Source of the DNA: Escherichia coli
GTDB taxonomy: Bacteria; Pseudomonadota; Gammaproteobacteria; Enterobacterales; Enterobacteriaceae
NCBI RefSeq assembly: GCF_011045215.1
Contig: NZ_CP049201.1
Reading direction: 5' to 3' (one strand)
Length of the DNA stretch: 64,000 nucleotides
Both the position numbers and the translations under genes were made by a program. The notes below the pieces were generated by a model. It was not told where the DNA came from. It saw nothing but the letters and a program-made list of their open reading frames with translations, and ran no database searches. Within the stretch, counting starts at the first letter, position 1, and every line of letters begins with the position of its first letter. This document shows positions 7,415-63,459 of this stretch, in pieces.

Positions 7415-7422
7415 GTTGGATG

Positions 7423-10287: not shown

Positions 10288-10307
10288 AGAAAATCTGGTT
10301 AACTTCG

Positions 10308-11261: not shown

Positions 11262-11684
11262 AAAAGTTCTCCATTCAATCGTTTTAATGATTGAATATGT
11301 ATTTTTTATATCTAACTTAATGAGTCAATTACATATTGCTCCACTGTTTATATTTTGTTTAGTATTGAATGATTATCACAATGCGCTATCTATTTTTGGT
11401 TTAATTATCTGTTATTGTTTCATATTGCGGTTTTACTGTGTGTTTTTTTTATGCTTTTGTGGTGCTTTTATCTATTTAAGTGCCATGCCTTTAGAGGCAT
11501 ATAAGCGAAAATAGCACGAGGTTTATCCTCAATTGCTATGTTTTTTAGTACAAAAAAGAGGGACAAAACTGAGACACATAAGGCCTCACAATGGCTTGCA
11601 AGGCTTTACATGTTTTGAGGTAGTGGGACGTGTGAGCGCAGAGATGGCGCGGTAAGTTGTTGACTTAAAATGTCGTTCTAGGAA

Positions 11685-11729
11685 CTTCTAAGTCGTGGGC
11701 CGCAGGTTCGAATCCTGCAGGGCGCGCCA
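11685..11729 (+). other. Prophage attR: duplicated 3' ~45 nt of tRNA-Arg (argU); a tRNA fragment, not a functional gene
   Basis: cttctaagtcgtgggccgcaggttcgaatcctgcagggcgcgcca is the 3' half of argU, with no matching 5' half or D-arm upstream. This is the expected right junction of an argU-integrated prophage. Confidence 0.85.
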
Positions 11730-33322: not shown

Positions 33323-33475
33323 ATGCTGACGAAATATGCTCTTGTGGCAGTCATAGTGCTGTGTTTGACGGTACTGGGATTTACGCTTCTGGTCGGAGAC
33401 TCGCTGTGTGAGTTTACGGTGAAGGAACGTAATATTGAGTTCAGGGCTGTTCTCGCTTACGAACCGAAGAAGTAG
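33323..33475 (+). CDS. hokE: Hok-family type I toxin HokE (small membrane peptide)
   Basis: 50-aa product [50 protein letters not shown]; an in-frame upstream-extended ORF (33179-33475) is consistent with a mok-like leader frame. Confidence 0.85.
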
Positions 33476-38079: not shown

Positions 38080-38298
38080 ATGGCATTCAGTAATCCCTTC
38101 GATGATCCACAGGGAGTGTTTTACATTTTGCGCAATGCGCAGGGGCAATTCAGTCTGTGGCCGCAACAATGCGCCTTACCGGCAGGCTGGGACATTGTGT
38201 GTCAGCCGCAGTCACAAGAGTCCTGCCAGCAGTGGCTTGAAGCCCACTGGCGTACTCTGACACCGGCGAATTTCACCCAGTTGCAGGAGGCACAATGA
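38080..38298 (+). CDS. ybdZ: MbtH-like protein YbdZ (NRPS adenylation-domain partner)
   Basis: 72-aa product MAFSNPFDDPQGVFYILRNAQGQFSLWPQQCALPAGWDIVCQPQSQESCQQWLEAHW...; overlaps the fes stop and the entF start. Confidence 0.9.
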   Translation: MAFSNPFDDPQGVFYILRNAQGQFSLWPQQCALPAGWDIVCQPQSQESCQQWLEAHWRTLTPANFTQLQEAQ

Positions 38299-41200
38299 GC
38301 CAGCATTTACCTTTGGTCGCCGCACAGCCCGGCATCTGGATGGCAGAAAAACTGTCGGATTTACCCTCCGCCTGGAGCGTGGCGCATTACGTTGAGTTAA
38401 CCGGAGAGGTTGATGTGCCATTACTGGCCCGCGCGGTGGTTGCCGGATTAGCGCAAGCAGATACGTTGCGGATGCGTTTTACGGAAGATAACGGCGAAGT
38501 CTGGCAATGGGTCGATGATGCGCTGATATTCGAACTGCCAGAAATTATCGACCTGCGAACCAATATTGATCCGCACGGTACTGCGCAGGCATTAATGCAG
38601 GCGGATTTGCAACAAGATTTGCGCGTCGATAGCGGTAAACCACTGGTCTTTCACCAGCTGATACAGGTGGCAGATAACCGCTGGTACTGGTATCAGCGTT
38701 ATCACCATTTACTGGTCGATGGCTTCAGTTTTCCGGCCATTACCCGCCAGATCGCCAACATTTACTGCGCATTGCTGCGTGGCGAACCAACGCCTGCTTC
38801 GCCGTTTACGCCTTTCGCTGATGTAGTGGAAGAGTACCAGCAATACCGCGAAAGCGAAGCCTGGCAGCGTGATGCGGCATTCTGGGTGGAACAGCGTCGC
38901 CAACTGCCACCGCCCGCGTCACTTTCTCCGGCACCTTTAGCGGGGCGCAGCGCCTCGGCAGATATTCTGCGCCTGAAACTGGAATTTACCGACGGGGAAT
39001 TCCGCCAGCTGGCTACGCAACTTTCAGGTGTGCAGCGTACCGATTTAGCCCTTGCGCTGGCAGCCTTGTGGCTGGGGCGATTGTGCAATCGCATGGACTA
39101 CGCCGCCGGATTTATCTTTATGCGTCGACTGGGCTCGGCGGCGCTGACGGCTACCGGACCCGTGCTCAACGTTTTGCCGTTGGGTATTCACATTGCGGCA
39201 CAGGAAACGCTGCCGGAACTGGCAACCCGACTGGCAGCACAACTGAAAAAAATGCGTCGTCATCAACGTTACGATGCCGAACAAATTGTCCGTGACAGCG
39301 GGCGAGCGGCAGGTGATGAACCGCTGTTTGGTCCGGTACTCAATATCAAGGTATTTGATTACCAACTGGATATTCCTGGTGTTCAGGCGCAAACCCATAC
39401 CCTGGCAACCGGTCCGGTTAATGACCTTGAACTGGCCCTGTTCCCGGATGAACACGGTGATTTGAGTATTGAGATCCTCGCCAATAAACAGCGTTACGAT
39501 GAGCCAACGTTAATCCAGCATGCTGAACGCCTGAAAATGCTGATTGCCCAGTTCGCCGCGGATCCGGCGCTGTTGTGCGGCGATGTCGATATTATGCTGC
39601 CAGGTGAATATGCGCAGTTGGCGCAGATCAACGCCACTCAGGTTGAGATTCCAGAAACCACGCTTAGCGCGCTGGTGGCAGAACAAGCGGCAAAAACACC
39701 GGATGCTCCGGCGCTGGCAGATGCGCGTTACCAGTTCAGCTATCGGGAAATGCGCGAGCAGGTGGTGGCGCTGGCGAATCTGCTGCGTGAGCACGGCGTT
39801 AAACCAGGGGACAGCGTGGCGGTGGCATTACCGCGCTCGGTCTTTTTGACCCTGGCGCTACATGCGATTGTTGAAGCAGGTGCGGCCTGGCTACCGCTGG
39901 ATACCGGTTATCCGGACGATCGCCTGAAAATGATGCTGGAAGATGCGCGCCCGTCGCTGTTAATCACCACCGACGATCAACTGCCGCGCTTTGCCGATAT
40001 TTCCGGTTTACCCCGCCTTTGCTACAACGCCCCGCTTACCCCGCAGGGCAGCGCGCCGCTGCAACTTTCGAAGCCGCACCACACGGCTTATATCATCTTT
40101 ACCTCTGGCTCCACTGGCAGGCCAAAAGGGGTAATGGTCGGGCAGACGGCTATCGTTAACCGTCTGTTGTGGATGCAAAATCATTATCCACTTACAGGTG
40201 AAGATGTCGTTGCCCAAAAAACGCCGTGCAGTTTTGATGTCTCGGTGTGGGAGTTTTTCTGGCCGTTTATTGCCGGGGCTAAACTAGTGATGGCTGAACC
40301 GGAAGCGCACCGCGACCCGCTCGCTATGCAGCAATTCTTTGCCGAATATGGCGTAACGACTACGCACTTTGTGCCGTCGATGCTGGCGGCATTTGTTGCA
40401 TCGCTGACGCCGCAAACCGCTCGCCAGAGTTGCGCGACGTTGAAACAGGTTTTCTGTAGTGGTGAGGCCTTACCGGCTGATTTATGCCGCGAATGGCAAC
40501 AGTTAACCAGCGTGCCGTTGCATAATCTATATGGCCCGACGGAAGCGGCGGTAGATGTCAGCTGGTATCCGGCTTTTGGCGAGGAACTGGCACAGGTGCG
40601 CGGCAGCAGTGTGCCGATTGGTTATCCGGTGTGGAATACGGGCCTGCGCATTCTCGATGCGATGATGCATCCGGTGCCGCCGGGTGTGGCGGGAGATCTC
40701 TATCTCACCGGTATTCAACTGGCGCAGGGGTATCTTGGACGACCCGATCTGACCGCCAGCCGCTTTATTGCCGATCCTTTTGTCCCTGGTGAACGGATGT
40801 ACCGTACCGGAGACGTTGCCCGCTGGCTGGATAACGGCGCGGTGGAGTACCTCGGGCGCAGTGACGATCAGCTAAAAATTCGCGGGCAGCGTATTGAACT
40901 GGGCGAAATCGATCGCGTGATGCAGGCGCTGCCGGATGTCGAACAAGCCGTTACCCACGCCTGTGTGATTAACCTGGCGGCAGCCACCGGTGGTGATGCG
41001 CGTCAGTTGGTGGGCTATCTGGTGTCGCAATCAGGTCTGCCGTTGGATACCAGCGCATTACAGGCACAGCTTCGCGAAACATTGCCGCCGCATATGGTGC
41101 CGGTCGTTCTGCTGCAACTTCCACAGTTACCTCTTAGCGCCAACGGCAAGCTGGATCGCAAAGCCTTACCGTTGCCTGAACTTAAGGCACAAACGCCGGG

Positions 41201-42176
41201 GCGTGCGCCGAAAGCGGGCAGTGAAACGATTATCGCTGCGGCATTCGCGTCGTTGCTGGGTTGTGACGTGCAGGATGCCGATGCTGATTTCTTCGCGCTT
41301 GGCGGTCATTCGCTACTGGCAATGAAACTGGCAGCGCAGTTAAGTCGGCAGTTTGCCCGTCAGGTGACGCCGGGGCAGGTGATGGTTGCGTCAACCGTCG
41401 CCAAACTGGCAACGATTATTGATGGTGAAGAGGACAGCTCCCGGCGCATGGGATTCGAAACCATTCTGCCGTTGCGTGAAGGTAATGGCCCGACGCTGTT
41501 TTGTTTCCATCCGGCATCCGGTTTTGCCTGGCAGTTTAGCGTGCTCTCGCGTTATATCGATCCACAATGGTCGATTATCGGCATTCAGTCGCCGCGCCCC
41601 AATGGCCCCATGCATACCGCGGCAAATCTGGATGAAGTCTGTGAAGCGCATCTGGCAACGTTACTTGAACAACAACCGCACGGCCCTTATTACCTGCTGG
41701 GGTATTCCCTTGGCGGTACGCTGGCGCAGGGTATTGCGGCGCGGCTGCGTGCCCGTGGCGAACAGGTGGCATTTCTTGGCTTGCTGGATACCTGGCCGCC
41801 AGAAACGCAAAACTGGCAGGAAAAAGAAGCTAATGGTCTGGACCCGGAAGTGCTGGCGGAGATTAACCGCGAGCGCGAGGCCTTCCTGGCGGCACAGCAG
41901 GGAAGTACTTCAACGGAGTTGTTTACCACCATTGAAGGCAACTACGCTGATGCTGTGCGCCTGCTGACGACTGCTCATAGCGTACCGTTTGACGGTAAAG
42001 CGACGTTGTTTGTTGCTGAACGCACGCTTCAGGAAGGTATGAGTCCTGAACGCGCCTGGTCGCCGTGGATTGCGGAGCTGGATATCTATCGTCAGGATTG
42101 TGCGCATGTGGATATTATCTCTCCAGGGGCATTTGAAAAAATTGGGCCGATTATTCGCGCAACGCTAAACAGATAA
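38295..42176 (+). CDS. entF: Enterobactin synthase component F (NRPS: C-A-PCP-TE, serine-activating)
   Basis: 1293-aa product MSQHLPLVAAQPGIWMAEKLSDLPSAWSVAHYVELTGEVD...; core motifs HHLLVDG (C), FTSGSTGRPKG and YRTGD (A), FFALGGHSL (PCP), GYSLGG (TE). Confidence 0.95.
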   Translation: MSQHLPLVAAQPGIWMAEKLSDLPSAWSVAHYVELTGEVDVPLLARAVVAGLAQADTLRMRFTEDNGEVWQWVDDALIFELPEIIDLRTNIDPHGTAQALMQADLQQDLRVDSGKPLVFHQLIQVADNRWYWYQRYHHLLVDGFSFPAITRQIANIYCALLRGEPTPASPFTPFADVVEEYQQYRESEAWQRDAAFWVEQRRQLPPPASLSPAPLAGRSASADILRLKLEFTDGEFRQLATQLSGVQRTDLALALAALWLGRLCNRMDYAAGFIFMRRLGSAALTATGPVLNVLPLGIHIAAQETLPELATRLAAQLKKMRRHQRYDAEQIVRDSGRAAGDEPLFGPVLNIKVFDYQLDIPGVQAQTHTLATGPVNDLELALFPDEHGDLSIEILANKQRYDEPTLIQHAERLKMLIAQFAADPALLCGDVDIMLPGEYAQLAQINATQVEIPETTLSALVAEQAAKTPDAPALADARYQFSYREMREQVVALANLLREHGVKPGDSVAVALPRSVFLTLALHAIVEAGAAWLPLDTGYPDDRLKMMLEDARPSLLITTDDQLPRFADISGLPRLCYNAPLTPQGSAPLQLSKPHHTAYIIFTSGSTGRPKGVMVGQTAIVNRLLWMQNHYPLTGEDVVAQKTPCSFDVSVWEFFWPFIAGAKLVMAEPEAHRDPLAMQQFFAEYGVTTTHFVPSMLAAFVASLTPQTARQSCATLKQVFCSGEALPADLCREWQQLTSVPLHNLYGPTEAAVDVSWYPAFGEELAQVRGSSVPIGYPVWNTGLRILDAMMHPVPPGVAGDLYLTGIQLAQGYLGRPDLTASRFIADPFVPGERMYRTGDVARWLDNGAVEYLGRSDDQLKIRGQRIELGEIDRVMQALPDVEQAVTHACVINLAAATGGDARQLVGYLVSQSGLPLDTSALQAQLRETLPPHMVPVVLLQLPQLPLSANGKLDRKALPLPELKAQTPGRAPKAGSETIIAAAFASLLGCDVQDADADFFALGGHSLLAMKLAAQLSRQFARQVTPGQVMVASTVAKLATIIDGEEDSSRRMGFETILPLREGNGPTLFCFHPASGFAWQFSVLSRYIDPQWSIIGIQSPRPNGPMHTAANLDEVCEAHLATLLEQQPHGPYYLLGYSLGGTLAQGIAARLRARGEQVAFLGLLDTWPPETQNWQEKEANGLDPEVLAEINREREAFLAAQQGSTSTELFTTIEGNYADAVRLLTTAHSVPFDGKATLFVAERTLQEGMSPERAWSPWIAELDIYRQDCAHVDIISPGAFEKIGPIIRATLNR

Positions 42177-42193
42177 ATTAACATTATCTATAA

Positions 42194-42232
42194 ACCCATA
42201 ATTGCAGGAAATAATTATGGGTTTATCATTTA
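42194..42232 (+). terminator. Rho-independent terminator candidate after entF
   Basis: Stem aaacccataatt / aattatgggttt followed by a T-rich tract. Confidence 0.6.
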
Positions 42233-42391
42233 TATAATTTATAAGTTTGCTGGTTCTTTTTCTTAAATAGAGTGAATGTTGCATTCAGTGGAATGAATTT
42301 ACAAACTTCAGCTTCGGATAATTCTCACCAGCTGGTAAAGTGAGCGCCGTGGAGATTTCCCCCTATTGGACTCATTTTCAGGTTATACCCC

Positions 42392-43525
42392 ATGTCATCA
42401 CTGAATATTAAACAGGGAAGTGACGCTCATTTTCCCGATTATCCTCTGGCGTCGCCCAGTAATAATGAAATTGATTTACTTAATCTAATCTCAGTTTTAT
42501 GGCGGGCCAAAAAAACGGTCATGGCGGTCGTTTTTGCGTTTGCCTGCGCAGGCTTGCTGATCTCTTTCATCCTGCCGCAAAAATGGACCAGCGCGGCGGT
42601 TGTCACGCCTCCAGAACCTGTTCAGTGGCAAGAGTTGGAGAAAACATTCACTAAGCTTCGTGTGCTGGATCTGGATATCAAAATTGATCGTACAGAAGCA
42701 TTTAACCTGTTTATCAAGAAGTTTCAGTCGGTTAGCTTGCTGGAAGAGTACCTGCGTTCATCACCTTATGTGATGGACCAATTAAAAGAGGCGAAAATCG
42801 ACGAACTGGATTTGCATCGCGCAATTGTCGCATTGAGCGAAAAAATGAAAGCGGTTGATGACAATGCCAGTAAGAAAAAAGATGAACCGTCACTGTATAC
42901 CTCCTGGACGCTAAGTTTTACCGCGCCAACCAGTGAAGAGGCGCAGACCGTTTTGTGCGGGTATATCGATTATATCTCTGCGTTGGTGGTGAAAGAGTCG
43001 CTAGAAAACGTCCGTAATAAGCTGGAGATCAAAACCCAGTTTGAAAAAGAAAAACTGGCTCAGGATCGCATTAAAACGAAAAATCAACTTGATGCAAACA
43101 TTCAGCGCCTCAATTATTCACTCGACATTGCCAACGCGGCAGGAATTAAAAAGCCCGTATACAGTAATGGTCAGGCCGTTAAAGATGACCCCGATTTCTC
43201 TATTTCTCTCGGCGCAGACGGTATTGAACGCAAACTGGAAATTGAAAAAGCGGTTACTGACGTTGCGGAACTGAATGGTGAATTACGTAATCGTCAGTAT
43301 CTTGTCGAGCAATTAACAAAAGCAAATGTCAACGATGTGAATTTTACGCCGTTTAAATATCAGTTAAGTCCGTCATTGCCAGTGAAAAAAGACGGTCCGG
43401 GTAAGGCGATTATTGTGATCCTTTCCGCGTTGATCGGCGGGATGGTGGCTTGTGGTGGTGTGCTGTTGCGTCATGCGATGGCATCCAGAAAACAGGATGC
43501 CATGATGGCAGACCACTTAGTTTAA
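42392..43525 (+). CDS. fepE: Wzz-family polysaccharide co-polymerase FepE (very-long O-antigen chain-length regulator)
   Basis: 377-aa product MSSLNIKQGSDAHFPDYPLASPSNNEIDLLNLISVLWRAKKTVMAVVFAFACAGLLISF... Confidence 0.9.
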   Translation: MSSLNIKQGSDAHFPDYPLASPSNNEIDLLNLISVLWRAKKTVMAVVFAFACAGLLISFILPQKWTSAAVVTPPEPVQWQELEKTFTKLRVLDLDIKIDRTEAFNLFIKKFQSVSLLEEYLRSSPYVMDQLKEAKIDELDLHRAIVALSEKMKAVDDNASKKKDEPSLYTSWTLSFTAPTSEEAQTVLCGYIDYISALVVKESLENVRNKLEIKTQFEKEKLAQDRIKTKNQLDANIQRLNYSLDIANAAGIKKPVYSNGQAVKDDPDFSISLGADGIERKLEIEKAVTDVAELNGELRNRQYLVEQLTKANVNDVNFTPFKYQLSPSLPVKKDGPGKAIIVILSALIGGMVACGGVLLRHAMASRKQDAMMADHLV

Positions 43526-44337
43526 ATCTTTGCGGTTGAAGGTGCCGTTCGTCCGAGCGGCACCACAAGCGGCGTTCCGGCTACCGGATCGTCAATAATC
43601 ATGCAGCGTAGACCATAAATGCGCTCGATCAATTCAGCAGTGATAATCTCCTTCGGCGCTCCCTGAGCAACAATTTTCCCTTCCCGCAACGCAATCAAAT
43701 GGCTGGCGTAACGACAGGCCTGATTAAGATCGTGCAGCACTGCCGCCAGGGTATAGCCTTTCTCACGGTTCAGTTCGCTTAACAGTTCCAGGAGATCAAT
43801 CTGATGACTGATATCCAGCCAGGTCGTGGGTTCATCGAGCAGCATAATTGCCGTTTCCTGGGCCAGCACCATCGCGATCCACGTTCGCTGGCGTTGTCCG
43901 CCAGAAAGGGTATCCACGCTTTGATCTGCCAGATGAGTTATTCCCGTGGCCTGCATCGCTTTCGTTACCGCTTCTTCATCCTCTTTGCGCCAGCGGGTAA
44001 ACAGCGGTTGATGCGGGTAACGCCCACGCGCCACCAGCTCCTGCACGGTGATATCGCCCGGCGTGGTAGCATTTTGCGCCAAAAGACCAATCCGGCGTGC
44101 AACTTCTTTACTGGCGTAATGTTGAATGTGCTCGCCATCCAGCCAGACATGCCCATGAGCAGGCGTCATCAGGCGGCTTAAGGTACGCAGTAACGTGGAT
44201 TTACCGCAGCCATTTGGCCCGATAATTGCCGTGAAGTGACCATCAGGTATTTCTACAGTCAGATTTTCCGCAACGGTATATTTGCCATATCCCAGGGTTA
44301 ACTGTTCGCCGCGCAAACGGGCTACAGATTCGGTCAT
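43522..44337 (-). CDS. fepC: Ferric-enterobactin ABC transporter ATPase FepC
   Basis: 271-aa product from MTESVARLRGEQLTLGYGKYTVAENLTVEIPDGHFTAIIGPNGCGKSTLL...; Walker A and LSGGQRQR signature. The track ORF extends 47 codons upstream. Confidence 0.9.
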   Translation of the reverse strand: MTESVARLRGEQLTLGYGKYTVAENLTVEIPDGHFTAIIGPNGCGKSTLLRTLSRLMTPAHGHVWLDGEHIQHYASKEVARRIGLLAQNATTPGDITVQELVARGRYPHQPLFTRWRKEDEEAVTKAMQATGITHLADQSVDTLSGGQRQRTWIAMVLAQETAIMLLDEPTTWLDISHQIDLLELLSELNREKGYTLAAVLHDLNQACRYASHLIALREGKIVAQGAPKEIITAELIERIYGLRCMIIDDPVAGTPLVVPLGRTAPSTAKI

Positions 44338-45326
44338 TTTTTGCGAGACTCCTGAATTAACAAGACGATAAGGTAAATACCGCCGAGGCTGACGGTAACG
44401 ACGCCAACCGGAAGTTGATACGGCATAAACAGTTGTTGGGCGCAGAGATCGGCCGCCAGCAGTAACAACGCTCCGCACAGCGCCGCCTGGGTCAGCCCCC
44501 AGCGAGCGGTGCCGCTAATGCGTCGGGCAATGTGCGGCGCGACTAAAGCAATAAAGGAAATCGGCCCGGCAAGCGCCGTTGCCGCAGCGGTAAGCACCAC
44601 TGCAACCAGCATCATTAACAGACGCGAACGTTCGACGCTGACGCCCAGCGCGCAGGCGGTATCATCGCCCATCTCCAGCAAGCGCATTCGCCGCACCAGC
44701 AAGGCGGCGGCAATTAGCATCAATATAATGATGGGTGCGGAAGGCGAAGTTTTTGCCCACGTCAGGCCATTGAGCGATCCGGCATTCCACAAACCCGCTG
44801 TTAGCGCCGTTTCTAAAGACGCTTTCAGCAACAGCCAGGTATTAAAGGCCACCAGCATGGCGCGAACGCCGATACCGATAATAATCAACCGAAAGGTGTC
44901 GATGCCGTTGCGCCAGGCGAGCAGCCAGACCAGCAGCGAAGTGACAATGCCGCCCACCATTGCTGACAGCGCGATAGCCGTCAGGTCCTGACCAAACAGC
45001 ACCATCGCCACCAGCACGCCGCTCCACGCCCCGGTGTTAAAGCCCATTACGTCAGGGCTACCGAGCGGGTTACGCATCAGCGACTGAAAAATTGCGCCGC
45101 TGACGCCCAACGCCGCGCCAATCAACAGCGCCATCAGCACGCGTGGTAAACGCCATTCGGTGACTACCATCGTCATACTGCGCGGCGCATCGCCCATCAG
45201 CGCGGCGAATACCTGCGAGGTTTCCAGCGTGACGGCACCGCTGCGTAATCCCCAGATACCTGCAACCACACAGGCGGAAATCAGCAGCAAACAGGTGATG
45301 AGTAATCGGCGAGAGACGTAAATCAT
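44334..45326 (-). CDS. fepG: Ferric-enterobactin ABC transporter permease FepG
   Basis: 330-aa product MIYVSRRLLITCLLLISACVVAGIWGLRSGAVTLETSQVFAAL... Confidence 0.9.
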   Translation of the reverse strand: MIYVSRRLLITCLLLISACVVAGIWGLRSGAVTLETSQVFAALMGDAPRSMTMVVTEWRLPRVLMALLIGAALGVSGAIFQSLMRNPLGSPDVMGFNTGAWSGVLVAMVLFGQDLTAIALSAMVGGIVTSLLVWLLAWRNGIDTFRLIIIGIGVRAMLVAFNTWLLLKASLETALTAGLWNAGSLNGLTWAKTSPSAPIIILMLIAAALLVRRMRLLEMGDDTACALGVSVERSRLLMMLVAVVLTAAATALAGPISFIALVAPHIARRISGTARWGLTQAALCGALLLLAADLCAQQLFMPYQLPVGVVTVSLGGIYLIVLLIQESRKK

Positions 45327-46327
45327 GCACCACCTCGCGTTTTACGTCGCACGAGGAAGATTAGCACCGGTGCACCAATAAACGCACTGACCACAGAAAC
45401 GCGCAGCTCGCCGGGCACAATCACCCGCCCGATGATATCGGCAAACAGCAGCAGGGCAGGGGTAGCAAGTAGCGTGACGGGCAGCGACCAGCGATGATCG
45501 GCACCCACCAGCCAACGCGCCATATGCGGCATCATCAGGCCAATAAAGGCAATCGGGCCAACTACTGCCGTCGCACTACCACAAAGCACGGTAATCGCCA
45601 GCAGACCAATCAACTGTGTGCGCGCCACGCGACTGCCCAGCGCCGTCGCGGTGTCGCTGCCGAGGCTCAAACTGTTCAGCGCGCGGCTCAGTAATAGCGC
45701 AGTTGCTCCGGCGATCAGCACCGGGATCAGCACCACTTTTAAGGTATGTAGATTGCGAATATCCAGCGAACCGGCTTGCCAGAGACGCAGTTGATCGTAG
45801 ACGTCAGGATTAAGCAGGGCGATGCCGCTGGTCAGCCCTTCAAGCACCGCCGCCAGCGCCACGCCCGCCAGGGTTAAACGCACCGGACTTAACTGCCCGC
45901 CGCCCTGGCTGCCGGTAAAGGCAACAATCAACGAGGCCACCAGCGCCCCGGCGAAGGCCATCGCCAGTTGTTCCTGTGCGGAAGAGTAACCAAACAGCGC
46001 CGCACCCAGCACAATGGCAAAGCTGGCTCCGGCGTTCACGCCAAGCAAGCCGGGGTCGGCAAGTGGGTTTCGGGTGAGGGTTTGCATTAACGCCCCGGCA
46101 AGGCCAAGCGCGCCGCCTGCCAGTAAACCGGCAAGGGTACGCGGCAGCCGCGCGTCGAGCACGATGGTGCAGTCGGCGCTCTGGCAGGTGCCGGAGAAGG
46201 CCTCCAGCACTACGGAAGCGGGGAGTGATTTTGCCCCAATGAGCAGACTTAATGCCGTCGCGATAATCAGTAATAACAGCAATCCGGGCACGGCAATGGC
46301 GCGTGTCACGGCAACAGAACCAGACAT
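45323..46327 (-). CDS. fepD: Ferric-enterobactin ABC transporter permease FepD
   Basis: Product MSGSVAVTRAIAVPGLLLLLIIATALSLLIGAKSLPAS... with GGAAG upstream of this ATG; an in-frame ATG 4 codons upstream (46339) is the alternative start. Confidence 0.85.
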   Translation of the reverse strand: MSGSVAVTRAIAVPGLLLLLIIATALSLLIGAKSLPASVVLEAFSGTCQSADCTIVLDARLPRTLAGLLAGGALGLAGALMQTLTRNPLADPGLLGVNAGASFAIVLGAALFGYSSAQEQLAMAFAGALVASLIVAFTGSQGGGQLSPVRLTLAGVALAAVLEGLTSGIALLNPDVYDQLRLWQAGSLDIRNLHTLKVVLIPVLIAGATALLLSRALNSLSLGSDTATALGSRVARTQLIGLLAITVLCGSATAVVGPIAFIGLMMPHMARWLVGADHRWSLPVTLLATPALLLFADIIGRVIVPGELRVSVVSAFIGAPVLIFLVRRKTRGGA

Positions 46328-46339
46328 ACGAACTTCCAT

Positions 46340-52503: not shown

Positions 52504-53665
<1,162 letters not shown>

Positions 53666-53845
53666 ACCCGACAGAATTATATGAGATTGCAGGAAAACTC
53701 GGTTAACGGAGTGATCGAGTTAACATTGTTAAGTTAAATATTGGTTTCAACTCCGATTTACATGGTTGCTGTGTTGTTAAATCGTACAAAGATGTTATAG
53801 AAACAAAATGTAACATCTCTATGGACACGCACACGGATAACAACT

Positions 53846-55951
53846 ATGAACAAATCAGGGAAATACCTCGTCTGGACAGTGCTCTCTGTAATGGGAGCAT
53901 TTGCTCTGGGATACATTGCTTTAAATCGTGGGGAACAGATCAACGCGCTGTGGATTGTGGTGGCGTCGGTCTGTATCTATCTGATCGCTTACCGTTTTTA
54001 TGGGCTGTATATCGCCAAAAATGTGCTGGCGGTTGACCCGACGCGTATGACGCCAGCGGTGCGCCATAACGACGGGCTGGACTATGTGCCGACGGACAAG
54101 AAAGTGCTGTTCGGTCACCATTTTGCGGCCATTGCCGGAGCAGGTCCGCTGGTGGGGCCGGTGCTGGCGGCGCAAATGGGTTACCTGCCGGGGATGATCT
54201 GGCTGCTCGCCGGGGTGGTTCTCGCCGGTGCGGTGCAGGATTTCATGGTGCTGTTTGTTTCTACGCGCCGTGACGGTCGTTCGCTGGGTGAGCTGGTCAA
54301 AGAAGAGATGGGGCCAACCGCCGGGGTGATCGCGCTGGTGGCCTGCTTTATGATCATGGTCATTATCCTTGCAGTACTGGCGATGATCGTGGTGAAAGCC
54401 CTGACTCATAGCCCGTGGGGAACGTATACCGTTGCGTTCACCATTCCGCTGGCGCTGTTTATGGGAATCTACCTGCGCTATCTGCGTCCGGGGCGTATTG
54501 GTGAAGTGTCGGTCATCGGTCTGGTATTCCTGATTTTCGCCATTATTTCTGGCGGCTGGGTGGCAGAAAGTCCGACCTGGGCACCGTACTTTGACTTTAC
54601 CGGCGTGCAGCTGACCTGGATGCTGGTGGGTTACGGTTTTGTGGCGGCGGTGCTGCCGGTGTGGTTGCTGCTGGCTCCGCGTGACTACCTCTCTACCTTC
54701 CTGAAAATCGGGACGATCGTCGGTCTGGCGGTAGGCATTTTGATTATGCGCCCGACGCTGACCATGCCTGCGCTGACCAAATTTGTCGATGGCACTGGCC
54801 CGGTATGGACCGGTAACCTGTTCCCGTTCCTGTTTATCACCATCGCCTGTGGTGCGGTGTCTGGCTTCCATGCGCTGATCTCTTCCGGTACCACGCCGAA
54901 GATGCTGGCGAACGAAGGGCAGGCGTGCTTTATCGGCTACGGCGGGATGTTGATGGAATCCTTCGTGGCGATTATGGCACTGGTTTCCGCCTGTATCATC
55001 GATCCGGGCGTCTATTTCGCCATGAACAGCCCGATGGCGGTGCTGGCTCCGGCAGGGACGGCGGATGTGGTCGCTTCTGCGGCGCAAGTGGTGAGTAGCT
55101 GGGGCTTTGCGATTACCCCGGATACGCTAAACCAGATTGCCAGCGAAGTGGGTGAACAGTCGATCATTTCCCGTGCGGGCGGTGCGCCGACGTTGGCGGT
55201 GGGGATGGCTTACATCCTGCACGGTGCGCTGGGTGGTATGATGGATGTGGCGTTCTGGTATCACTTCGCCATTCTGTTTGAAGCTCTGTTTATTCTGACG
55301 GCGGTAGATGCGGGTACGCGTGCTGCGCGCTTTATGTTGCAGGATCTGCTGGGCGTGGTTTCTCCGGGCCTGAAACGGACCGATTCACTGCCTGCTAACC
55401 TGCTGGCAACGGCGCTGTGCGTGCTAGCGTGGGGCTACTTCCTGCATCAGGGTGTGGTCGATCCGCTGGGCGGTATTAACACTCTGTGGCCGCTGTTTGG
55501 TATTGCCAACCAGATGCTGGCAGGGATGGCGCTGATGCTCTGTGCCGTGGTGCTGTTCAAAATGAAACGTCAACGTTACGCCTGGGTGGCGCTGGTACCA
55601 ACGGCCTGGCTGCTGATTTGTACCCTGACCGCAGGCTGGCAGAAAGCGTTTAGCCCGGATGCGAAAGTCGGCTTCCTGGCCATTGCTAACAAGTTCCAGG
55701 CAATGATCGACAGCGGCAATATTCCGTCGCAGTATACTGAGTCACAGCTGGCGCAACTGGTGTTCAACAACCGTCTGGATGCCGGGTTAACCATCTTCTT
55801 TATGGTGGTCGTGGTGGTTCTGGCACTGTTCTCGATTAAGACGGCACTGGCGGCATTGAAAGAGCCGAAGCCAACGGCGAAAGAAACGCCGTATGAGCCA
55901 ATGCCGGAAAATGTCGAGGAGATCGTGGCGCAGGCAAAAGGCGCGCACTAA
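53846..55951 (+). CDS. cstA: Carbon starvation protein A (peptide/pyruvate transporter) CstA
   Basis: 701-aa product MNKSGKYLVWTVLSVMGAFALGYIALNRGEQINALWIVVASVCIYLIAYRFYGLYIAKNVLAVD... Confidence 0.95.
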   Translation: MNKSGKYLVWTVLSVMGAFALGYIALNRGEQINALWIVVASVCIYLIAYRFYGLYIAKNVLAVDPTRMTPAVRHNDGLDYVPTDKKVLFGHHFAAIAGAGPLVGPVLAAQMGYLPGMIWLLAGVVLAGAVQDFMVLFVSTRRDGRSLGELVKEEMGPTAGVIALVACFMIMVIILAVLAMIVVKALTHSPWGTYTVAFTIPLALFMGIYLRYLRPGRIGEVSVIGLVFLIFAIISGGWVAESPTWAPYFDFTGVQLTWMLVGYGFVAAVLPVWLLLAPRDYLSTFLKIGTIVGLAVGILIMRPTLTMPALTKFVDGTGPVWTGNLFPFLFITIACGAVSGFHALISSGTTPKMLANEGQACFIGYGGMLMESFVAIMALVSACIIDPGVYFAMNSPMAVLAPAGTADVVASAAQVVSSWGFAITPDTLNQIASEVGEQSIISRAGGAPTLAVGMAYILHGALGGMMDVAFWYHFAILFEALFILTAVDAGTRAARFMLQDLLGVVSPGLKRTDSLPANLLATALCVLAWGYFLHQGVVDPLGGINTLWPLFGIANQMLAGMALMLCAVVLFKMKRQRYAWVALVPTAWLLICTLTAGWQKAFSPDAKVGFLAIANKFQAMIDSGNIPSQYTESQLAQLVFNNRLDAGLTIFFMVVVVVLALFSIKTALAALKEPKPTAKETPYEPMPENVEEIVAQAKGAH

Positions 55952-55994
55952 AGTCAGAGTGAGGGGGGATGTTGGCGAATGTTGGCATAGTGCC

Positions 55995-56100
55995 GAGGGT
56001 TCCCCCTCACCCTAACCCTCTCCCCGATGGGGCGAGGGGACTGACCGAGCGCGTTGATAGCATTTGTAGGCCGGATAAGGCGTTCACGCCGCATCCGGCA
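55995..56100. repeat. REP/BIME-type palindromic elements between cstA and ybdD
   Basis: ccctctccccgatggggcgagggg palindrome followed by tgtaggccggataaggcgttcacgccgcatccggca (canonical REP). Confidence 0.8.
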
Positions 56101-56132
56101 CTCTTTCAGCAACATGGTTAGCGGAGGCCAAG

Positions 56133-56330
56133 ATGTTTGATTCACTGGCAAAAGCCGGAAAATATTTAGGTCAGGCGGCGAAGCTGATGATTGGTATGCC
56201 TGATTACGACAACTATGTCGAACATATGCGGGTTAACCATCCCGATCAAACGCCGATGACCTACGAAGAGTTTTTCCGTGAGCGGCAGGACGCGCGCTAC
56301 GGTGGAAAAGGCGGCGCGCGCTGCTGCTAA
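56133..56330 (+). CDS. ybdD: Small DUF466 protein YbdD (CstA-associated)
   Basis: 65-aa product [65 protein letters not shown]. Confidence 0.9.
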
Positions 56331-56339
56331 ATTTGCACG

Positions 56340-57428
56340 TCAGGCTTTAAACGATTCCACTTTTTCGAACGCTGCACGCAACGTATCTGGTGTCAGCGTG
56401 ACTGGCAGGTAATGAATGGACTCCACCGGGCGCAAGGTGTGGGCAATCACTTTGTCGATCTCCGCCTGATTATTGATATCCACTTCCAGCTCCGCCAGCG
56501 TAGTCGGCAGATGAAAACGCTGATACGCTCCAGTTAATTGCGCCAGAACATCATCCTGACCCAGCAAGGCGCTTTGCACCAGAATTCCGTAGGCGACTTT
56601 GGTGCCGTGAAGAAACTTCTCGGTTTGCGGCAGCACGGTCAGACCGTTATGCACGGCATGAGCCGCCGCCACACGCGTAAAACGATCGCCCAGACCACCG
56701 ACCATCCCACCACCAGCAATAATAGCATCCACCACATCGCAAAATGATTGCGTTAACTGTTGATTTTGCTGATCGCTCAGCGCCTGTTCGCTACTGTTTA
56801 ACAAGACGTCGCGAATGGCCTGCGCATTATTGATCCCCAGTCGCACGGTTAGCGGCAACGTTTCTGGTTGCGGAGCCAGCACCACCGCTTCATACCATTT
56901 CGCCAGCGTGTCACCGATCCCCGCCAGCAGATATTGTTGCGGCGCATTGAGGATAATCTCTGGTTCCACCAGCACCATAAAATTGGCGTCGTCGAAAATC
57001 TCATAATGCAGCGCCTGTCCGGCATCGTTATACCAGACGGAGAGCGGTGTCCAGGCGGCGCAGGTGGCGGCGATCGTCGGAGCGGCAACAAATGGCAGAC
57101 CGAGACGGCGGGCGAGGGCTTTCGCGGTGTCGAGCAGTGCGCCGCCGCCGACGCCAATCACCACGCTGCGATCGTCACCGGACTCAGCCGCCAGTTGCTG
57201 TACATCGCTTTCGCTGCAATGACCACGAAACAAAATATGCTTTGCCCCTGGAAGTCCAAACGCTGGCGGAAGTTTGGTTTGCGCCGCAGCAATGGCGCGT
57301 TTGCCGTAGATCCACACAGCGCGAGAAAGTTGTTCATCAGTGAAAAAATCGTGCAGGTGATTGAAACTTCCTGGATGTGAAAAGTAGTTAGCCGGGCCGA
57401 CGACCACGCGGATAGGATTGTGAGGCAT
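56340..57428 (-). CDS. ybdH: Iron-containing alcohol dehydrogenase family (glycerol dehydrogenase-like) hydroxycarboxylate dehydrogenase YbdH
   Basis: 362-aa product MPHNPIRVVVGPANYFSHPGSFNHLHDFFTDEQLSRAVWIYGKRAIAAAQ... with a GGGALLD-type motif. Confidence 0.9.
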   Translation of the reverse strand: MPHNPIRVVVGPANYFSHPGSFNHLHDFFTDEQLSRAVWIYGKRAIAAAQTKLPPAFGLPGAKHILFRGHCSESDVQQLAAESGDDRSVVIGVGGGALLDTAKALARRLGLPFVAAPTIAATCAAWTPLSVWYNDAGQALHYEIFDDANFMVLVEPEIILNAPQQYLLAGIGDTLAKWYEAVVLAPQPETLPLTVRLGINNAQAIRDVLLNSSEQALSDQQNQQLTQSFCDVVDAIIAGGGMVGGLGDRFTRVAAAHAVHNGLTVLPQTEKFLHGTKVAYGILVQSALLGQDDVLAQLTGAYQRFHLPTTLAELEVDINNQAEIDKVIAHTLRPVESIHYLPVTLTPDTLRAAFEKVESFKA

Positions 57429-57536
57429 GTTGTGTTGTCCTTATTGTTTTATTTAGACATCTAAACGTCTTGATTGCCAAATACTAGCATCGTGTTATAG
57501 TGCCTTCAACACGCAACTTCGTCAGGTACAATAAAA

Positions 57537-58697
57537 ATGACAAATAACCCTCTGATTCCACAAAGCAAACTTCCACAACTTGGCACCACTATTTTCACCC
57601 AGATGAGCGCGCTGGCGCAGCAACACCAGGCGATTAACCTGTCGCAAGGCTTTCCTGATTTTGATGGTCCGCGCTATTTACAGGAGCGGCTGGCGTACCA
57701 CGTTGCCCAGGGGGCAAACCAATACGCGCCCATGACCGGCGTGCAGGCCTTGCGCGAGGCGATTGCTCTGAAAACGGAACGTTTGTATGGCTATCAACCA
57801 GATGCCGATAGCGATATCACCGTAACGGCAGGGGCGACGGAAGCGTTATACGCGGCGATTACCGCACTGGTGCGCAATGGCGATGAAGTGATTTGTTTTG
57901 ATCCCAGCTATGACAGTTACGCCCCCGCCATCGCGCTTTCTGGGGGAATAGTGAAGCGTATGGCACTGCAACCACCGCATTTTCGCGTTGACTGGCAGGA
58001 ATTTGCCGCATTGTTAAGCGAGCGCACCAGACTGGTGATCCTCAACACTCCGCATAATCCCAGTGCAACTGTCTGGCAGCAGGCTGATTTCGCCGCTTTG
58101 TGGCAGGCGATCGCCGGGCACGAGATTTTTGTCATTAGCGATGAAGTCTACGAGCACATCAACTTTTCACAACAGGGCCATGCCAGTGTGCTGGCGCATC
58201 CGCAGCTGCGTGAGCGGGCAGTGGCGGTTTCTTCATTTGGCAAGACCTATCATATGACCGGCTGGAAAGTGGGTTATTGTGTTGCGCCAGCGCCCATCAG
58301 CGCCGAAATTCGCAAGGTACATCAGTATCTGACCTTTTCGGTAAATACCCCGGCACAGTTGGCAATTGCGGATATGCTACGTGCAGAACCTGAGCATTAT
58401 CTTGCGTTACCGGACTTTTATCGCCAGAAGCGCGATATTCTGGTAAATGCCTTAAATGAAAGTCGGCTGGAGATTTTACCGTGCGAAGGCACATACTTTT
58501 TGCTGGTGGATTACAGCGCGGTTTCTACCCTGGATGATGTTGAGTTTTGCCAGTGGCTGACGCAGGAGCACGGCGTGGCGGCGATTCCGCTATCGGTGTT
58601 TTGCGCCGATCCCTTCCCACATAAACTGATTCGTCTCTGTTTTGCCAAGAAGGAATCGACGTTGCTGGCAGCAGCTGAACGACTGCGCCAGCTGTAG
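57537..58697 (+). CDS. ybdL: PLP-dependent methionine aminotransferase YbdL
   Basis: 386-aa product MTNNPLIPQSKLPQLGTTIFTQMSALAQQHQAINLSQGFPDFDGPRYLQERL...; PLP lysine in SFGKTYHMTGWKVGY. Confidence 0.9.
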   Translation: MTNNPLIPQSKLPQLGTTIFTQMSALAQQHQAINLSQGFPDFDGPRYLQERLAYHVAQGANQYAPMTGVQALREAIALKTERLYGYQPDADSDITVTAGATEALYAAITALVRNGDEVICFDPSYDSYAPAIALSGGIVKRMALQPPHFRVDWQEFAALLSERTRLVILNTPHNPSATVWQQADFAALWQAIAGHEIFVISDEVYEHINFSQQGHASVLAHPQLRERAVAVSSFGKTYHMTGWKVGYCVAPAPISAEIRKVHQYLTFSVNTPAQLAIADMLRAEPEHYLALPDFYRQKRDILVNALNESRLEILPCEGTYFLLVDYSAVSTLDDVEFCQWLTQEHGVAAIPLSVFCADPFPHKLIRLCFAKKESTLLAAAERLRQL

Positions 58698-59327
58698 TTA
58701 TTTGACAGTCCAGGCGCGGGAATATTGACGGTCGGCAAACAGCTCTTGCAGACCGTTAATTTGCTTCAGGCGCAGCACTTCGTCGCTGTCCATTCCCAGC
58801 TCTTTGCCAATTTTATTATCGTCCCATCCCAACTGGCTAAGTTCACGGACGATTTCCGACATGGCGGTGATTTGATGGCGTCCACGAGCGCGATTATGAC
58901 GAATAGTCGCGGCGATGCGTTGATTACGCGTACCTTCCAGACAGGTCACCGGCAAATAACCTTTTAAGCGTAATTTTAATGATGATGAGCCTTTACCAAT
59001 TTCATGGCGGTGAAAACCATCCACGATTTCCAGGGCATTTTTATCCGTATGCGTGACCACAATGGGTTGGGTAAAACCATCTATTTCAATGGATTTTTTC
59101 AGCAGTTTTTTTTCGGGTGGTGCCACGTTGTTTGGGTTGTAATCATTAGGCATAAGTTGGCTGTTTTTAACCCACAGAACGCAATCCACTGGCTCTTCAC
59201 GAAAGGGGCTAACCTGATGGATCGCCATGCGGATTTCATTAATCGCGTTGATGCGATCATCTTCCGGCAAGCTGGCGAGAAATTGCGTTAAATCCTGCGT
59301 TAATCGTTGTTGCATAGTATCCCCCAT
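58698..59327 (-). CDS. ybdM: ParB-like nuclease-domain protein YbdM
   Basis: 209-aa product MGDTMQQRLTQDLTQFLASLPEDDRINAINEIRMAIHQVSPFREEPVDCVLWVK...; convergent with ybdL (stop codons abut). Confidence 0.85.
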   Translation of the reverse strand: MGDTMQQRLTQDLTQFLASLPEDDRINAINEIRMAIHQVSPFREEPVDCVLWVKNSQLMPNDYNPNNVAPPEKKLLKKSIEIDGFTQPIVVTHTDKNALEIVDGFHRHEIGKGSSSLKLRLKGYLPVTCLEGTRNQRIAATIRHNRARGRHQITAMSEIVRELSQLGWDDNKIGKELGMDSDEVLRLKQINGLQELFADRQYSRAWTVK

Positions 59328-60520
59328 TCCTGACGTTTTCCTTTTATCCGTTCGTTATAACGCTGATAGTTCTTCGCTTTCGTAGGACTAAATGATAATG
59401 CCCGACACCAGTAATCGTTATTGAGTAAAACTTTGCATATCCGCCGCCAGGAGGGGATATCTTTCGCGCCAATGTCCCCTTGCTGGGTTTGTGGAACCTC
59501 GATGCCTTTTTTCTGATACCCGTGCAAATAAATGGCGATTTTATTGCGGTAATGCTCAGCTGTTTTTTCCGGCATGCTATTGAGCAGCAATAATGCATAT
59601 TCTTGCCAGTCTAAATGTTCTGGCTTGAGGATTTTCCGATGCCCATAGAAATGATTGTCATGTCCGGCGTAAATGCCGCCACTTTTTACCCCGCTGACTC
59701 GTGCGCACATAGCAGCCCAGCGATCCGGTTCGATAACGTGATAGAGCCATAATCCTTGTCGTTGCTCCGGGCCAAAAGGTTCGCAAATTCGCATATGACG
59801 CAGAGGAACGCCTGCCTGATACATTAGGTTATACAGTGGGTTGCAGAGACTTTGATGATTTGCATACTAGGTCCAGATATCAGCCACTTTCCAGTCGTAA
59901 ATGGGGTAAATGTACCAGCTATGACCGCCTGGTGCGGCCGTAGTCCAGGGTTTATCGTCGGCAAAACGTTGTTTATTTAAACTGGCGATGGCGACAAAAC
60001 GGTTGTAGGACTCATCCGCACGGATGCCGATCATCATCGCCGCCGGACGTTTTTGTGAAAACCATTCGGCAAACTCACGTACAAATTGTTCGAAGGTCAT
60101 GCCTGGCTGGTAAAAGGAGAAAAAGTCAGGATCGGTTATCGCATCTTGCGGGGGCTGACGCACCCATTCGACATCAGGTTCCCAGCACTGCCATTCGGGT
60201 TGGTATTGTGAAAGGGAATTTTGCGTCGTAAGCGGGAGCGCAACCCAGTAAAACTCTTCGATGACATCGGTGTACAACTCGCGCAGGGACTGAACATAGT
60301 TAATGGTGCAAGAGAATTGCGCCTCCCAGTCGATAAACAAAACGCAGATTTTTTTGCCCATTTGTCGGGCAAGTTCGGCTGTCAGATGCAGCATTAAACT
60401 AGAGTCTTTGCCGCCAGAAAATGAGACACAAACGCGGGGTAGGGTGTTGAGTGTCCAGGTAATACGCTCTCGTGCAGCTTCCAGAATATTGAGCGGAAGA
60501 GGAATTTTATAAATAGACAT
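59300..60520 (-). pseudogene. ybdN: PAPS-reductase-like protein YbdN interrupted by an in-frame TAG (amber) stop at about 59867-59869
   Basis: Two same-frame ORFs, 59867-60520 (217 aa, PP-loop SFSGGKDSSLMLHL) and 59300-59824 (174 aa), are separated only by one TAG and 14 sense codons (…VADIWT*YANHQSLCNPLYNLMYQAGVP…); together they total 406 codons. Confidence 0.75.
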
Positions 60521-60666
60521 CTAAAGACGCTCTCTGAACGTTACAGGGTGATCAGTGAGATAAGACTGTTAATTATAAAGTAAACACTGAAAAGCAGAGT
60601 GTTTTATTTTTCATTCGCGCTGTGAATAAATAGGTGAAAGTTATAGTAGCTGTCTGAGGTTATATA

Positions 60667-61569
60667 TCAAAAACACTCATTTAGACGGTCAATAAATCGT
60701 GAGAACACCAGATTGTTTAAAGAAGATTTATTATAGGAAATGTAAAGCTTTATTGAAGGTAACGGATGTTCTAGTTTTATCTCTTTTAAATTAAGAAAGT
60801 CACGGTGGGAGTTATAAAGTTCATAGGGGACTATTCCCAGTAAATCTGTAACTGCAATGCTATTAATGATTGTCAGCAAAGAGGAACCACGAAATGAAAT
60901 TTTGCGATTCATAAATCTCTCGTCTATTTCCATTTGAATATCATCAACCCCTGCTGATTTAGATATTAATTGGGTGAACTCTTCTGCCATAATTTGTTCA
61001 TAAGTGCTATTGTCAGTAATTCGTGGATGCCTATTACTACAAATGAGAGTATTGCGAATCGTATGCAATGGCATGCATATGACGGAACGGCTGATCACTG
61101 GCATTTGGGTGATCACCAGATCGGCTTTGCGGTGAACCAACAGTTCTTCAGCATTCTCTGCTGACATGAGGATATCATGGCACTCAATCTCGACAGAGGC
61201 ATCTTGCCGTAGGCAGCGGATCAGCATACTATTATTAGAGCAAGAAATGAGCTGAGGGCCGTAGATAATAAAGTTTTTCTTTAGTTCGGACTTATTGACT
61301 ATATTAATTGTTTGTTCAAGGCCTCTGAGATTTTTCTCAAGATGGTGATGCAGATTTAACCCTGTTGTCGTCGGCGCGATACCTTTTCCTGAGCGAATGA
61401 ATAAAGGGTCATTAAATTGCGCACGTAAGCGTTGTAACGACTGGCTCACGGCTGATGGGGTGATATATAGTGATTCAGCAGCTTTGCTAATGCTTAAATG
61501 CTGGTAAATACACTCAAATATGACAAGAAGATTTAAGTCGAACTTTTTCAAGTCGTAGAGATTGGTCAT
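60667..61569 (-). CDS. ybdO: LysR-family transcriptional regulator YbdO
   Basis: 300-aa product MTNLYDLKKFDLNLLVIFECIYQHLSISKAAESLYITPSAVSQSLQRLRAQFNDPLFIRSGKG... (N-terminal HTH). Confidence 0.9.
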   Translation of the reverse strand: MTNLYDLKKFDLNLLVIFECIYQHLSISKAAESLYITPSAVSQSLQRLRAQFNDPLFIRSGKGIAPTTTGLNLHHHLEKNLRGLEQTINIVNKSELKKNFIIYGPQLISCSNNSMLIRCLRQDASVEIECHDILMSAENAEELLVHRKADLVITQMPVISRSVICMPLHTIRNTLICSNRHPRITDNSTYEQIMAEEFTQLISKSAGVDDIQMEIDERFMNRKISFRGSSLLTIINSIAVTDLLGIVPYELYNSHRDFLNLKEIKLEHPLPSIKLYISYNKSSLNNLVFSRFIDRLNECF

Positions 61570-61777
61570 ACACTACTCCGGTTATATTTTTCTTCCATGA
61601 TATATTCACTTAATCAATGTTTTTTGCGTATATATTTTTATTGATTATGTTTTTTTGCTTAACTCAGGATTAAGTTTTTCTAAAATAGCACAGCCACTTA
61701 GGGCAGAGTGAGCAATTCATGCTTTTTTAGGATGGTTGAAAATCAGGGATATAGTTCAACCATCCATGAATTACCTT

Positions 61778-62524
61778 TTATTTATTTCCCATAATGATAT
61801 TAAGCGTTTTCTGATCGGGCAACCCCACGGCCTGTTGCAGCGTATTTTCCTTACTCATGTAATAGATAGCCGGAGTGACATTTGCCCCCAGATCGTCCAT
61901 GAGTTTCTCGTTGTCGCTTAACACTTTCATTTGCTCTGTACTTACGTTTGCAGGCACGTTTAGCTTAAGCTTGCCACCAGAGGCTTCATATTCTTGCCAG
62001 GTTTTTGCGGGATCTTTGGAGGCAAGAATTGCCGCGGCTGTCGCCGGACTTTCTGGTTTGATAACCCCAACCAACAATGTTCTCAACTGTACTTTGCCAG
62101 AATCTACCCACGGGCGCGCCTGCTGCCAGAACTGTTTACAATATGGGCAGAACGGATCGGCGAAGACGTAGACAATGACCGGCGCGTCTTTTTTACCGTC
62201 GAGGAGCCAGTGGGATTGTTCCATCCGTTGCCACATTTCGCGTCCGGCTGGTGCGTAAATTTCTTTTTCGATAAGTGTGTTACTCAGGTTTTCACCTTTC
62301 TCGTTGTACATGTAACCAGAGATAGCGTGCTTACCATCTGGAGTCAGGTAGATGGTGACGCCCATATCCTGATACTTTCCGAGATAACCTTTCATTCCTC
62401 CGGGGGCATCGAACGTTTTGATGATCGTAATACCCTGTTTTTCAATCGCTTTTACTGGAGCAGGAAGTTCCTCTGCGAAGGCGATTGCAGGAAGCAGAGC
62501 CAGTAAAAGTATCTTTTTTAACAT
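61778..62524 (-). CDS. dsbG: Periplasmic thiol:disulfide oxidoreductase DsbG
   Basis: 248-aa product from [38 protein letters not shown]...; CPYC active site. The track ORF extends 20 codons upstream. Confidence 0.9.
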
Positions 62525-62895
62525 TAATTTGTCCTTTTCAGTCAGTGCAAAAGTCGAGTAAAAGGCATAACCTATCATTGTCATAGGTAAGAGCTTAGAT
62601 CAGGTGATTGCCCTTTGTTTATGAGGGTGTTGTAATCCATGTCGTTGTTGCATTTGTAAGAGCAACACCGCAGCCTGCAGACAGGCGCTGAAGATACCAA
62701 AGGGTAGTTCAGATTACACGGTCACCTGGAAAGGGGGCCATTTTACTTTTTATCGCCGCTGGCGGTGCAAAGTTCACAAAGTTGTCTTACGAAGGTTGTA
62801 AGGTAAAACTTATCGATTTGATAATGGAAACGCATTAGCCGAATCGGTAAAAATTGGTTACCTTACATCTCATCGAAAACACGGAGGAAGTATAG

Positions 62896-63459
62896 ATGTC
62901 CTTGATTAACACCAAAATTAAACCTTTTAAAAACCAGGCATTCAAAAACGGCGAATTCATCGAAATCACCGAAAAAGATACCGAAGGCCGCTGGAGCGTC
63001 TTCTTCTTCTACCCGGCTGACTTTACTTTCGTATGCCCGACCGAACTGGGTGACGTTGCTGACCACTACGAAGAACTGCAGAAACTGGGCGTAGACGTAT
63101 ACGCAGTATCTACCGATACTCACTTCACCCACAAAGCATGGCACAGCAGCTCTGAAACCATCGCTAAAATCAAATATGCGATGATCGGCGACCCGACTGG
63201 CGCCCTGACCCGTAACTTCGACAACATGCGTGAAGATGAAGGTCTGGCTGACCGTGCGACCTTCGTTGTTGACCCGCAGGGTATCATCCAGGCAATCGAA
63301 GTTACCGCTGAAGGCATTGGCCGTGACGCGTCTGACCTGCTGCGTAAAATCAAAGCAGCACAGTACGTAGCTTCTCACCCAGGTGAAGTTTGCCCGGCTA
63401 AATGGAAAGAAGGTGAAGCAACTCTGGCTCCGTCTCTGGACCTGGTTGGTAAAATCTAA
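62896..63459 (+). CDS. ahpC: Alkyl hydroperoxide reductase peroxiredoxin subunit AhpC
   Basis: 187-aa product [65 protein letters not shown]... Confidence 0.97.

Follow-up and report, generated by a model that had tools for sequence, protein, structure and literature searches.

An inherited amber codon splits ybdN in an Escherichia coli lineage, most likely by Dcm-linked mutation of a CCAGG site

Why does ybdN of one Escherichia coli strain read as two open reading frames (ORFs) instead of one, and is the stop codon that separates them a genuine nonsense allele or an error in the sequence? The question arises from a 64,000-nt stretch of genomic DNA (here referred to as the window), in which the original prediction had seen ybdN split by one in-frame TAG into ORFs of 217 and 174 codons with 14 sense codons between them. 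The ORF list and the translation agree with this division. Moreover, the codon tally (217 + 1 + 14 + 174) adds up to 406, the same as K-12 b0602 (1221 nt), such that the pieces together correspond to a full-length gene, as had been expected. The features at the locus, with positions in the window, are as follows:

59300-60520, minus strand: ybdN (b0602 orthologue), 406-codon frame, collinear with K-12 over 1221 nt and, in our reading, now a pseudogene.
59867-60520, minus strand: N-terminal ORF, 217 amino acids plus stop, with the PP-loop and most of the PAPS_reduct domain.
60401-60418, minus strand: PP-loop motif SGGKDS, residues 35-40, from the translation.
60398-60400, minus strand: G41S (GGT to AGT), lineage-specific missense change immediately after the PP-loop; changed base 60400.
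59867-59869, minus strand: amber TAG at codon 218, in place of Trp TGG; the plus strand reads cta.
59825-59866, minus strand: 14 sense codons from the stop to the next in-frame ATG, from the ORF list and translation.
59519-59521, minus strand: W334G (TGG to GGG), lineage-specific missense change; changed base 59521.
59300-59824, minus strand: C-terminal ORF, 174 amino acids (Met233-Asp406), same frame, ATG start, with the entire DUF3440 domain.
59867-59871, plus strand: destroyed Dcm site, CTAGG, changed base 59868 (C to T); the site is CCAGG in PapM-32-1, 88-3493, and K-12.

Gene order at the locus is ahpC-dsbG-citR-ybdN-ybdM-ybdL-hcxA, and the neighbours match those of intact ybdN. Over the 171 nt around the stop, alignment with both K-12 MG1655 and 88-3493 reveals a single difference, TGG (Trp218) to TAG; TGG is one of the three sense codons (TGG, CAG, or TAT) that had been guessed for this position. 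Over the whole gene, the window allele is 13 nt from the K-12 allele and 3 nt from that of 88-3493 and PapM-32-1. These three differences, G41S, W218*, and W334G, all alter the protein. The other base is found in four comparators at G41S and W334G and in three at W218, and on this basis the three changes are taken to be derived in the window lineage.

The first possibility to consider is that the strain really has TGG at codon 218 and that the TAG was introduced in sequencing or assembly, one variant being a methylation-motif consensus error in a nanopore-only assembly. CCWGG-type methylation motifs are recognised trouble spots for nanopore consensus calling, and the changed base falls exactly in such a motif. 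However, other assemblies argue against an error. The 217- and 174-residue products are recorded once each, both on one 50.6-kb Logan contig from SRR11014969, a k-mer assembly with 100% identity to the window across their 7,926 shared nt. In addition, the separately deposited genome GCA_910592685.1 (L017) has the TAG in common with the window and departs from it at just 3 of 3,654 nt. L017 also carries three SNPs in ybdM and ybdL that set the window apart from PapM-32-1, and it lacks G41S and W334G while having a private change of its own, A236T. Since L017 shares the TAG together with these flanking SNPs, the TAG is, on this evidence, inherited within a small clade that has been sequenced more than once. 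Here, the base call at 59868 rests on agreement between assemblies, not on reads.

The comparison with PapM-32-1, the nearest complete genome (99.3% over 24 kb), bears on the same issue. Among 465 SNPs, only that at 59868 falls on the inner C/G of a CCWGG motif, while 186 CCWGG sites in the window are intact, and a systematic methylation-motif consensus error is therefore disfavoured. Against an error also stand the other orthologous window genes, all of which (41/41) align gap-free to PapM-32-1 with neither frameshift nor internal stop, and the two further missense changes in ybdN, which lie outside Dcm sites and fit real decay. We consequently find an error hardly credible. The original prediction had allowed for either a real nonsense allele or a sequencing error; of the two, the former is favoured, given that TAG is found both in an identical assembly of a public run and in a near-identical, distinct genome. 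Hence, ybdN of the window strain is in all likelihood a true nonsense pseudogene, formed by an ancestral C-to-T change at CCAGG that was most likely Dcm-linked and followed by decay. The allele would be an ordinary inherited loss-of-function nonsense allele, where we infer the loss of function, and not a new kind of feature.

Outside ybdN, the window shows a number of other features. Positions 1-11700 hold what is left of a lambdoid prophage, with genes for tail fibre, terminase, and portal, and then ompT and envY; at the junction matching this region, PapM-32-1 has tRNA-Arg and then fimZ and the sfm fimbrial genes. A 160-nt direct repeat with 83% identity between its copies is present at 4412-4571 and 8241-8400. 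Divergence from PapM-32-1 is mosaic when 38295-46339 is set against 53252-63459: ahpC, dsbG, citR, hcxA, ybdD, cstA, entH, entE, and entC are 100% identical, whereas fepC (95.7%), fepG (97.1%), and entF and fepE (both approximately 98.3%) are more divergent. This mosaic identity suggests recombination blocks in the fep/ent cluster. At 33323-33475, both hokE copies of PapM-32-1 match a single site (95.4% and 98.7% identity), and the window may carry just one hokE. At 61778-62584, the dsbG ORF runs for 268 amino acids from an upstream ATG compared with 248 (747 nt) for the annotated DsbG, a matter of start-codon choice only. A pseudogene- and IS-rich background of the Shigella type was considered and rejected, as the window has no IS-like repeats and the other genes compared are all whole. 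In Shigella and E. coli, decay likewise includes ybdN fragments and stops at other Trp codons; the difference is that the pseudogene- and IS-rich Shigella genomes contrast with a window in which the 41 other compared genes are whole.

How much of the protein would be left? In intact YbdN, Pfam assigns PAPS_reduct (PF01507) to residues 30-234 (E = 1e-13), DUF3440 (PF11922) to residues 237-383 (E = 5e-23 for the match at 237-344), and ATP_bind_3, a PP-loop family, to residues 30-68. Together with the SGGxDS motif (here SGGKDS), PF01507 and PF11922 fit a member of the PAPS-reductase/PP-loop superfamily with DUF3440, i.e., the YbdN/IbrA type. In the window strain, translation would end after 217 residues, giving a product without DUF3440 and without the last part of the PAPS-reductase fold. 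The complete PP-loop motif is present in the N-terminal fragment, as had been noticed from the sequence, while approximately the last 17 aligned residues of PAPS_reduct and the whole of DUF3440 are gone. Gene callers list the 174-residue C-terminal ORF as a separate gene in other assemblies.

The substitutions that followed the stop are informative with respect to function. In the clade, three changes are found in 3.65 kb after the stop arose (G41S and W334G in the window and A236T in L017); each of them lies in ybdN and is nonsynonymous, and the window and L017 have no post-stop substitutions relative to each other in 2.4 kb of ybdN flanks. Relative to PapM-32-1, the other 41 genes have 342 synonymous and 74 nonsynonymous changes, compared with 0 and 3 in ybdN, the latter being small numbers. 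With selection on ybdN gone, the sublineages would gain protein-altering changes, G41S and W334G here and A236T in the relative. This pattern, small as the numbers are, is best read as neutral decay under relaxed constraint after inactivation.

Could ybdN still be functional? The stop is an amber, the class suppressed by glnV44-type alleles, and it might be read through by a supE-like tRNA or by near-cognate decoding. Alternatively, two polypeptides might be made by reinitiation at Met233, as the downstream ORF is in frame, its ATG is just 42 nt past the stop, and the entire DUF3440 lies inside it; ybdM is also intact. However, in both sublineages every substitution that ybdN gained once the stop was present changes an amino acid, which argues for relaxed constraint on both halves. 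Inspection of the sequence upstream of the Met233 ATG gave no Shine-Dalgarno-like sequence, and the break takes away part of the PAPS_reduct domain. Nor does the site behave as one of programmed read-through or recoding: the stop is not conserved, codon 218 being TGG in K-12, 88-3493, and PapM-32-1 and in nearly all of the approximately 4,870 complete genomes matched by a 61-mer spanning it. With regard to suppressor tRNAs, ARAGORN identified no tRNA gene in the 64,000-nt window, and the K-12 glnV locus is situated some 60 kb beyond the window end. Functional read-through is unlikely because of the decay pattern, and we give a ybdN that still works, by either route, only a very small chance. 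The preferred reading remains a ybdN pseudogene.

The break may also be felt by the neighbouring gene. In this context, the two relevant features are:

58698-59327, minus strand: ybdM (ParB/IbrB-like), the downstream operon partner, intact, with no window-specific change.
60667-61569, minus strand: citR (ybdO), LysR-type repressor of ybdNM, intact, 100% identical to PapM-32-1.

The K-12 ybdNM operon is repressed by CitR/YbdO, the LysR regulator encoded next to it (PMC9068703). We found nothing in the literature on YbdN function beyond this repression. The K-12 YbdN/YbdM pair is encoded by the orthologous two-gene operon with the same 28-nt overlap and the same Pfam architecture, the difference being that K-12 ybdN is intact; in the window, ybdM overlaps the 3′ end of ybdN at 59300-59327. 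In the strain studied here, 567 nt before the ybdM start would no longer be translated, and it is plausible that ybdM expression is reduced through polarity. Some gene calls place the start of ybdM 12 nt further in (205 amino acids), a start with a better-spaced GGGGGA upstream than the annotated ATG. IbrA and IbrB are paralogues of YbdN and YbdM, and they likewise comprise a PAPS-reductase-like protein with DUF3440 and a ParB-like protein. Searches with the two proteins did not place them in a known system. PADLOC gave no full-length match for YbdN or YbdM, with partial weak matches to DndC (E = 2e-5, 100 residues) and BrxP (E = 1e-4, 74 residues). All NCBIfam matches are far below the curated cut-offs, and a PDB sequence search returned only weak partial matches and no solved relative of YbdN. 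With weak and partial matches to the DndC, BrxP, and CysH-type models, YbdN could not be assigned to a known defence system (Dnd or BREX) or to a sulfur-assimilation system.

The position of the changed base raises the question of how the stop arose. On the plus strand, positions 59867-59871 changed from an ancestral CCAGG to CTAGG, the substitution falling on the inner cytosine. In CCWGG sites it is this second C that Dcm methylates; the dcm gene itself lies outside the window. There are six CCWGG sites in ybdN, four of which (at codons 22, 192, 218, and 358) are of the form xxC-TGG, where deamination of a template-strand 5-methylcytosine turns TGG into TAG. In an ancestor of the small clade, the inner C of the plus-strand CCAGG (59868) became T, and Trp218 thereby changed from TGG to amber TAG. 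The likeliest cause would be spontaneous deamination of a Dcm-made 5-methylcytosine that was missed by very-short-patch repair. We consider a Dcm origin of the stop likely. There is a well-known parallel. Coulondre, Miller, Farabaugh and Gilbert reportedly found, in 1978, amber hotspots in lacI at Dcm sites (CCAGG), caused by 5-methylcytosine deamination. As at ybdN W218, C to T at the inner C of CCWGG makes TAG in these hotspots and recurs at the same sites. The lacI changes are CAG to TAG, on the coding strand and in laboratory mutants, whereas that in ybdN is TGG to TAG, with a template-strand C (whose methylation is putative) and in natural isolates.

Has the same change occurred elsewhere? 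The TAG-containing 61-mer is found exactly in 3 of the 4,870 complete genomes that it matches, nearly all of which have TGG. Three dog isolates in RefSeq carry the W218 amber (Z1323PEC0010, Z1323PEC0011, and Z1323PEC0013; NZ_CP148282, NZ_CP148277, and NZ_CP148269), and in them PGAP labels ybdN a pseudogene with "internal stop". Codon 218 has undergone the same TGG-to-TAG change in these isolates and the 61-mer is identical to that of the window; the difference lies in the allele, which is K-12-like, has T23I but neither G41S nor W334G, and is 13 nt from that of the window. Their amber most likely arose independently of that in the window. The TGG218-to-TAG change in ybdN is consequently already annotated in RefSeq as an internal-stop pseudogene and is not new. 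The W218 amber is further found in a Logan assembly whose ybdN allele is 61 nt from the window allele, and in nine further loci. With stop codons masked, the ybdN backgrounds that carry W218-TAG number at least five. For three of them, the sample also contains a TGG allele that is the same in every other respect, and two others lie 40 and 59 nt from the closest other allele sampled. In the most divergent W218-TAG allele, the first differences from the window allele on either side of the mutated base come at 32 nt (upstream) and at 7 nt (downstream). Such close flanking differences make import of W218-TAG by recombination unlikely.

Stops in ybdN are not confined to codon 218. Truncations are found in public assemblies at all ten of the ten Trp codons tested, on 7 to 387 contigs each (for one protein background), and C-terminal ybdN fragments of 157-180 amino acids are on record for Shigella flexneri and E. 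coli. One assembly (SRR29188683) has two ybdN stops, W192* and W258*. In two others, GCA_019269155.1 (CP078566.1; W358*) and ERR4843243 (W334*), ybdM is also split, into ORFs of 81 and 111 amino acids.

Deamination also predicts which stop codon is formed. In the loci returned by the look-up, which are not a random sample, all 25 loci with a stop at Trp codon 192, 218, or 358, in each case in Dcm context, have TAG (14 haplotypes) and none has TGA, whereas the non-Dcm Trp codons 202, 258, 305, and 334 have 5 TAG and 11 TGA loci (5 to 5 by haplotype). The TAG-only bias at Dcm relative to non-Dcm codons gives a Fisher p = 0.006 on haplotypes, a value that overstates the evidence because haplotypes are not fully independent events, the window and L017 being two haplotypes from one event. 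The TAG-only pattern fits 5-methylcytosine deamination. As a test of a Dcm hotspot, the contig counts of exact truncated proteins did not separate Dcm from non-Dcm codons; they reflect clonal abundance. The counts (233, 43, and 96 at Dcm codons compared with 67, 19, 17, 387, 7, 65, and 42 at non-Dcm codons) are dominated by clonal sampling, as illustrated by W258*, with 387 contigs and a single haplotype, and a rank-sum calculation by hand on these clonally confounded counts gives a one-sided p of approximately 0.13 for Dcm above non-Dcm. The hotspot was thereafter judged by stop-codon identity and haplotype backgrounds.

These data also bear on a simpler explanation, namely that the stop is real but stems from ordinary replication error, with the Dcm context coincidental and the recurrence a product of the huge sampling of E. 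coli. G-to-A transitions are frequent in any case (C to T or G to A accounts for 171 of the 465 SNPs relative to PapM-32-1), truncations are known at every Trp codon tested, and the Dcm codons do not stand out in the contig counts. However, replication error does not lead one to expect only TAG at the three Dcm-context codons, when TAG and TGA are mixed elsewhere, and the W218 amber has appeared on several distinct backgrounds. Replication error is accordingly the less probable origin, although of the alternatives discussed here it is the one that we take most seriously. Deamination at the Dcm site remains our preferred account.

A different view of the same recurrence is that loss of ybdN is adaptive, i.e., that repeated inactivation has been selected instead of reflecting neutral decay plus a mutational hotspot. 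This view draws on the nonsense alleles found for each of the Trp codons tested, in some cases in hundreds of contigs, on the strain with two ybdN stops (L019, the SRR29188683 assembly above), on those in which ybdM is broken as well (L031, GCA_019269155.1, and L050, ERR4843243), and on the fragments in Shigella. The stop counts, however, are for ybdN alone and give no measure of an excess over other non-essential genes, and the largest of them (that of W258*) represents one clone. Furthermore, 5,398 of 5,426 complete genomes keep a match over at least 80% of ybdN, a figure that includes intact and broken copies alike. Adaptive loss is, in our judgement, improbable. A broader formulation would be that either loss of ybdN is selected, such that shedding the CitR-repressed ybdNM is advantageous in some niches, or the split halves work through reinitiation at Met233; we regard this as a long shot. 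If true, it would provide the first functional handle on the uncharacterised ybdNM operon. Neutral decay after an amber mutation remains the reading that we adopt for the window lineage.

What does this mean for ybdN? The consequence is mainly one of annotation: the gene in the present genome should carry the label pseudogene with internal stop, as PGAP applies to other genomes with the W218 amber. Natural ybdN knock-outs such as this clade could also be a convenient starting point for comparing phenotypes. In a wider perspective, ybdN would offer an example, from natural populations, of a textbook mechanism: the Dcm-context Trp codons of ybdN examined here (three of four) repeatedly become amber and never opal.
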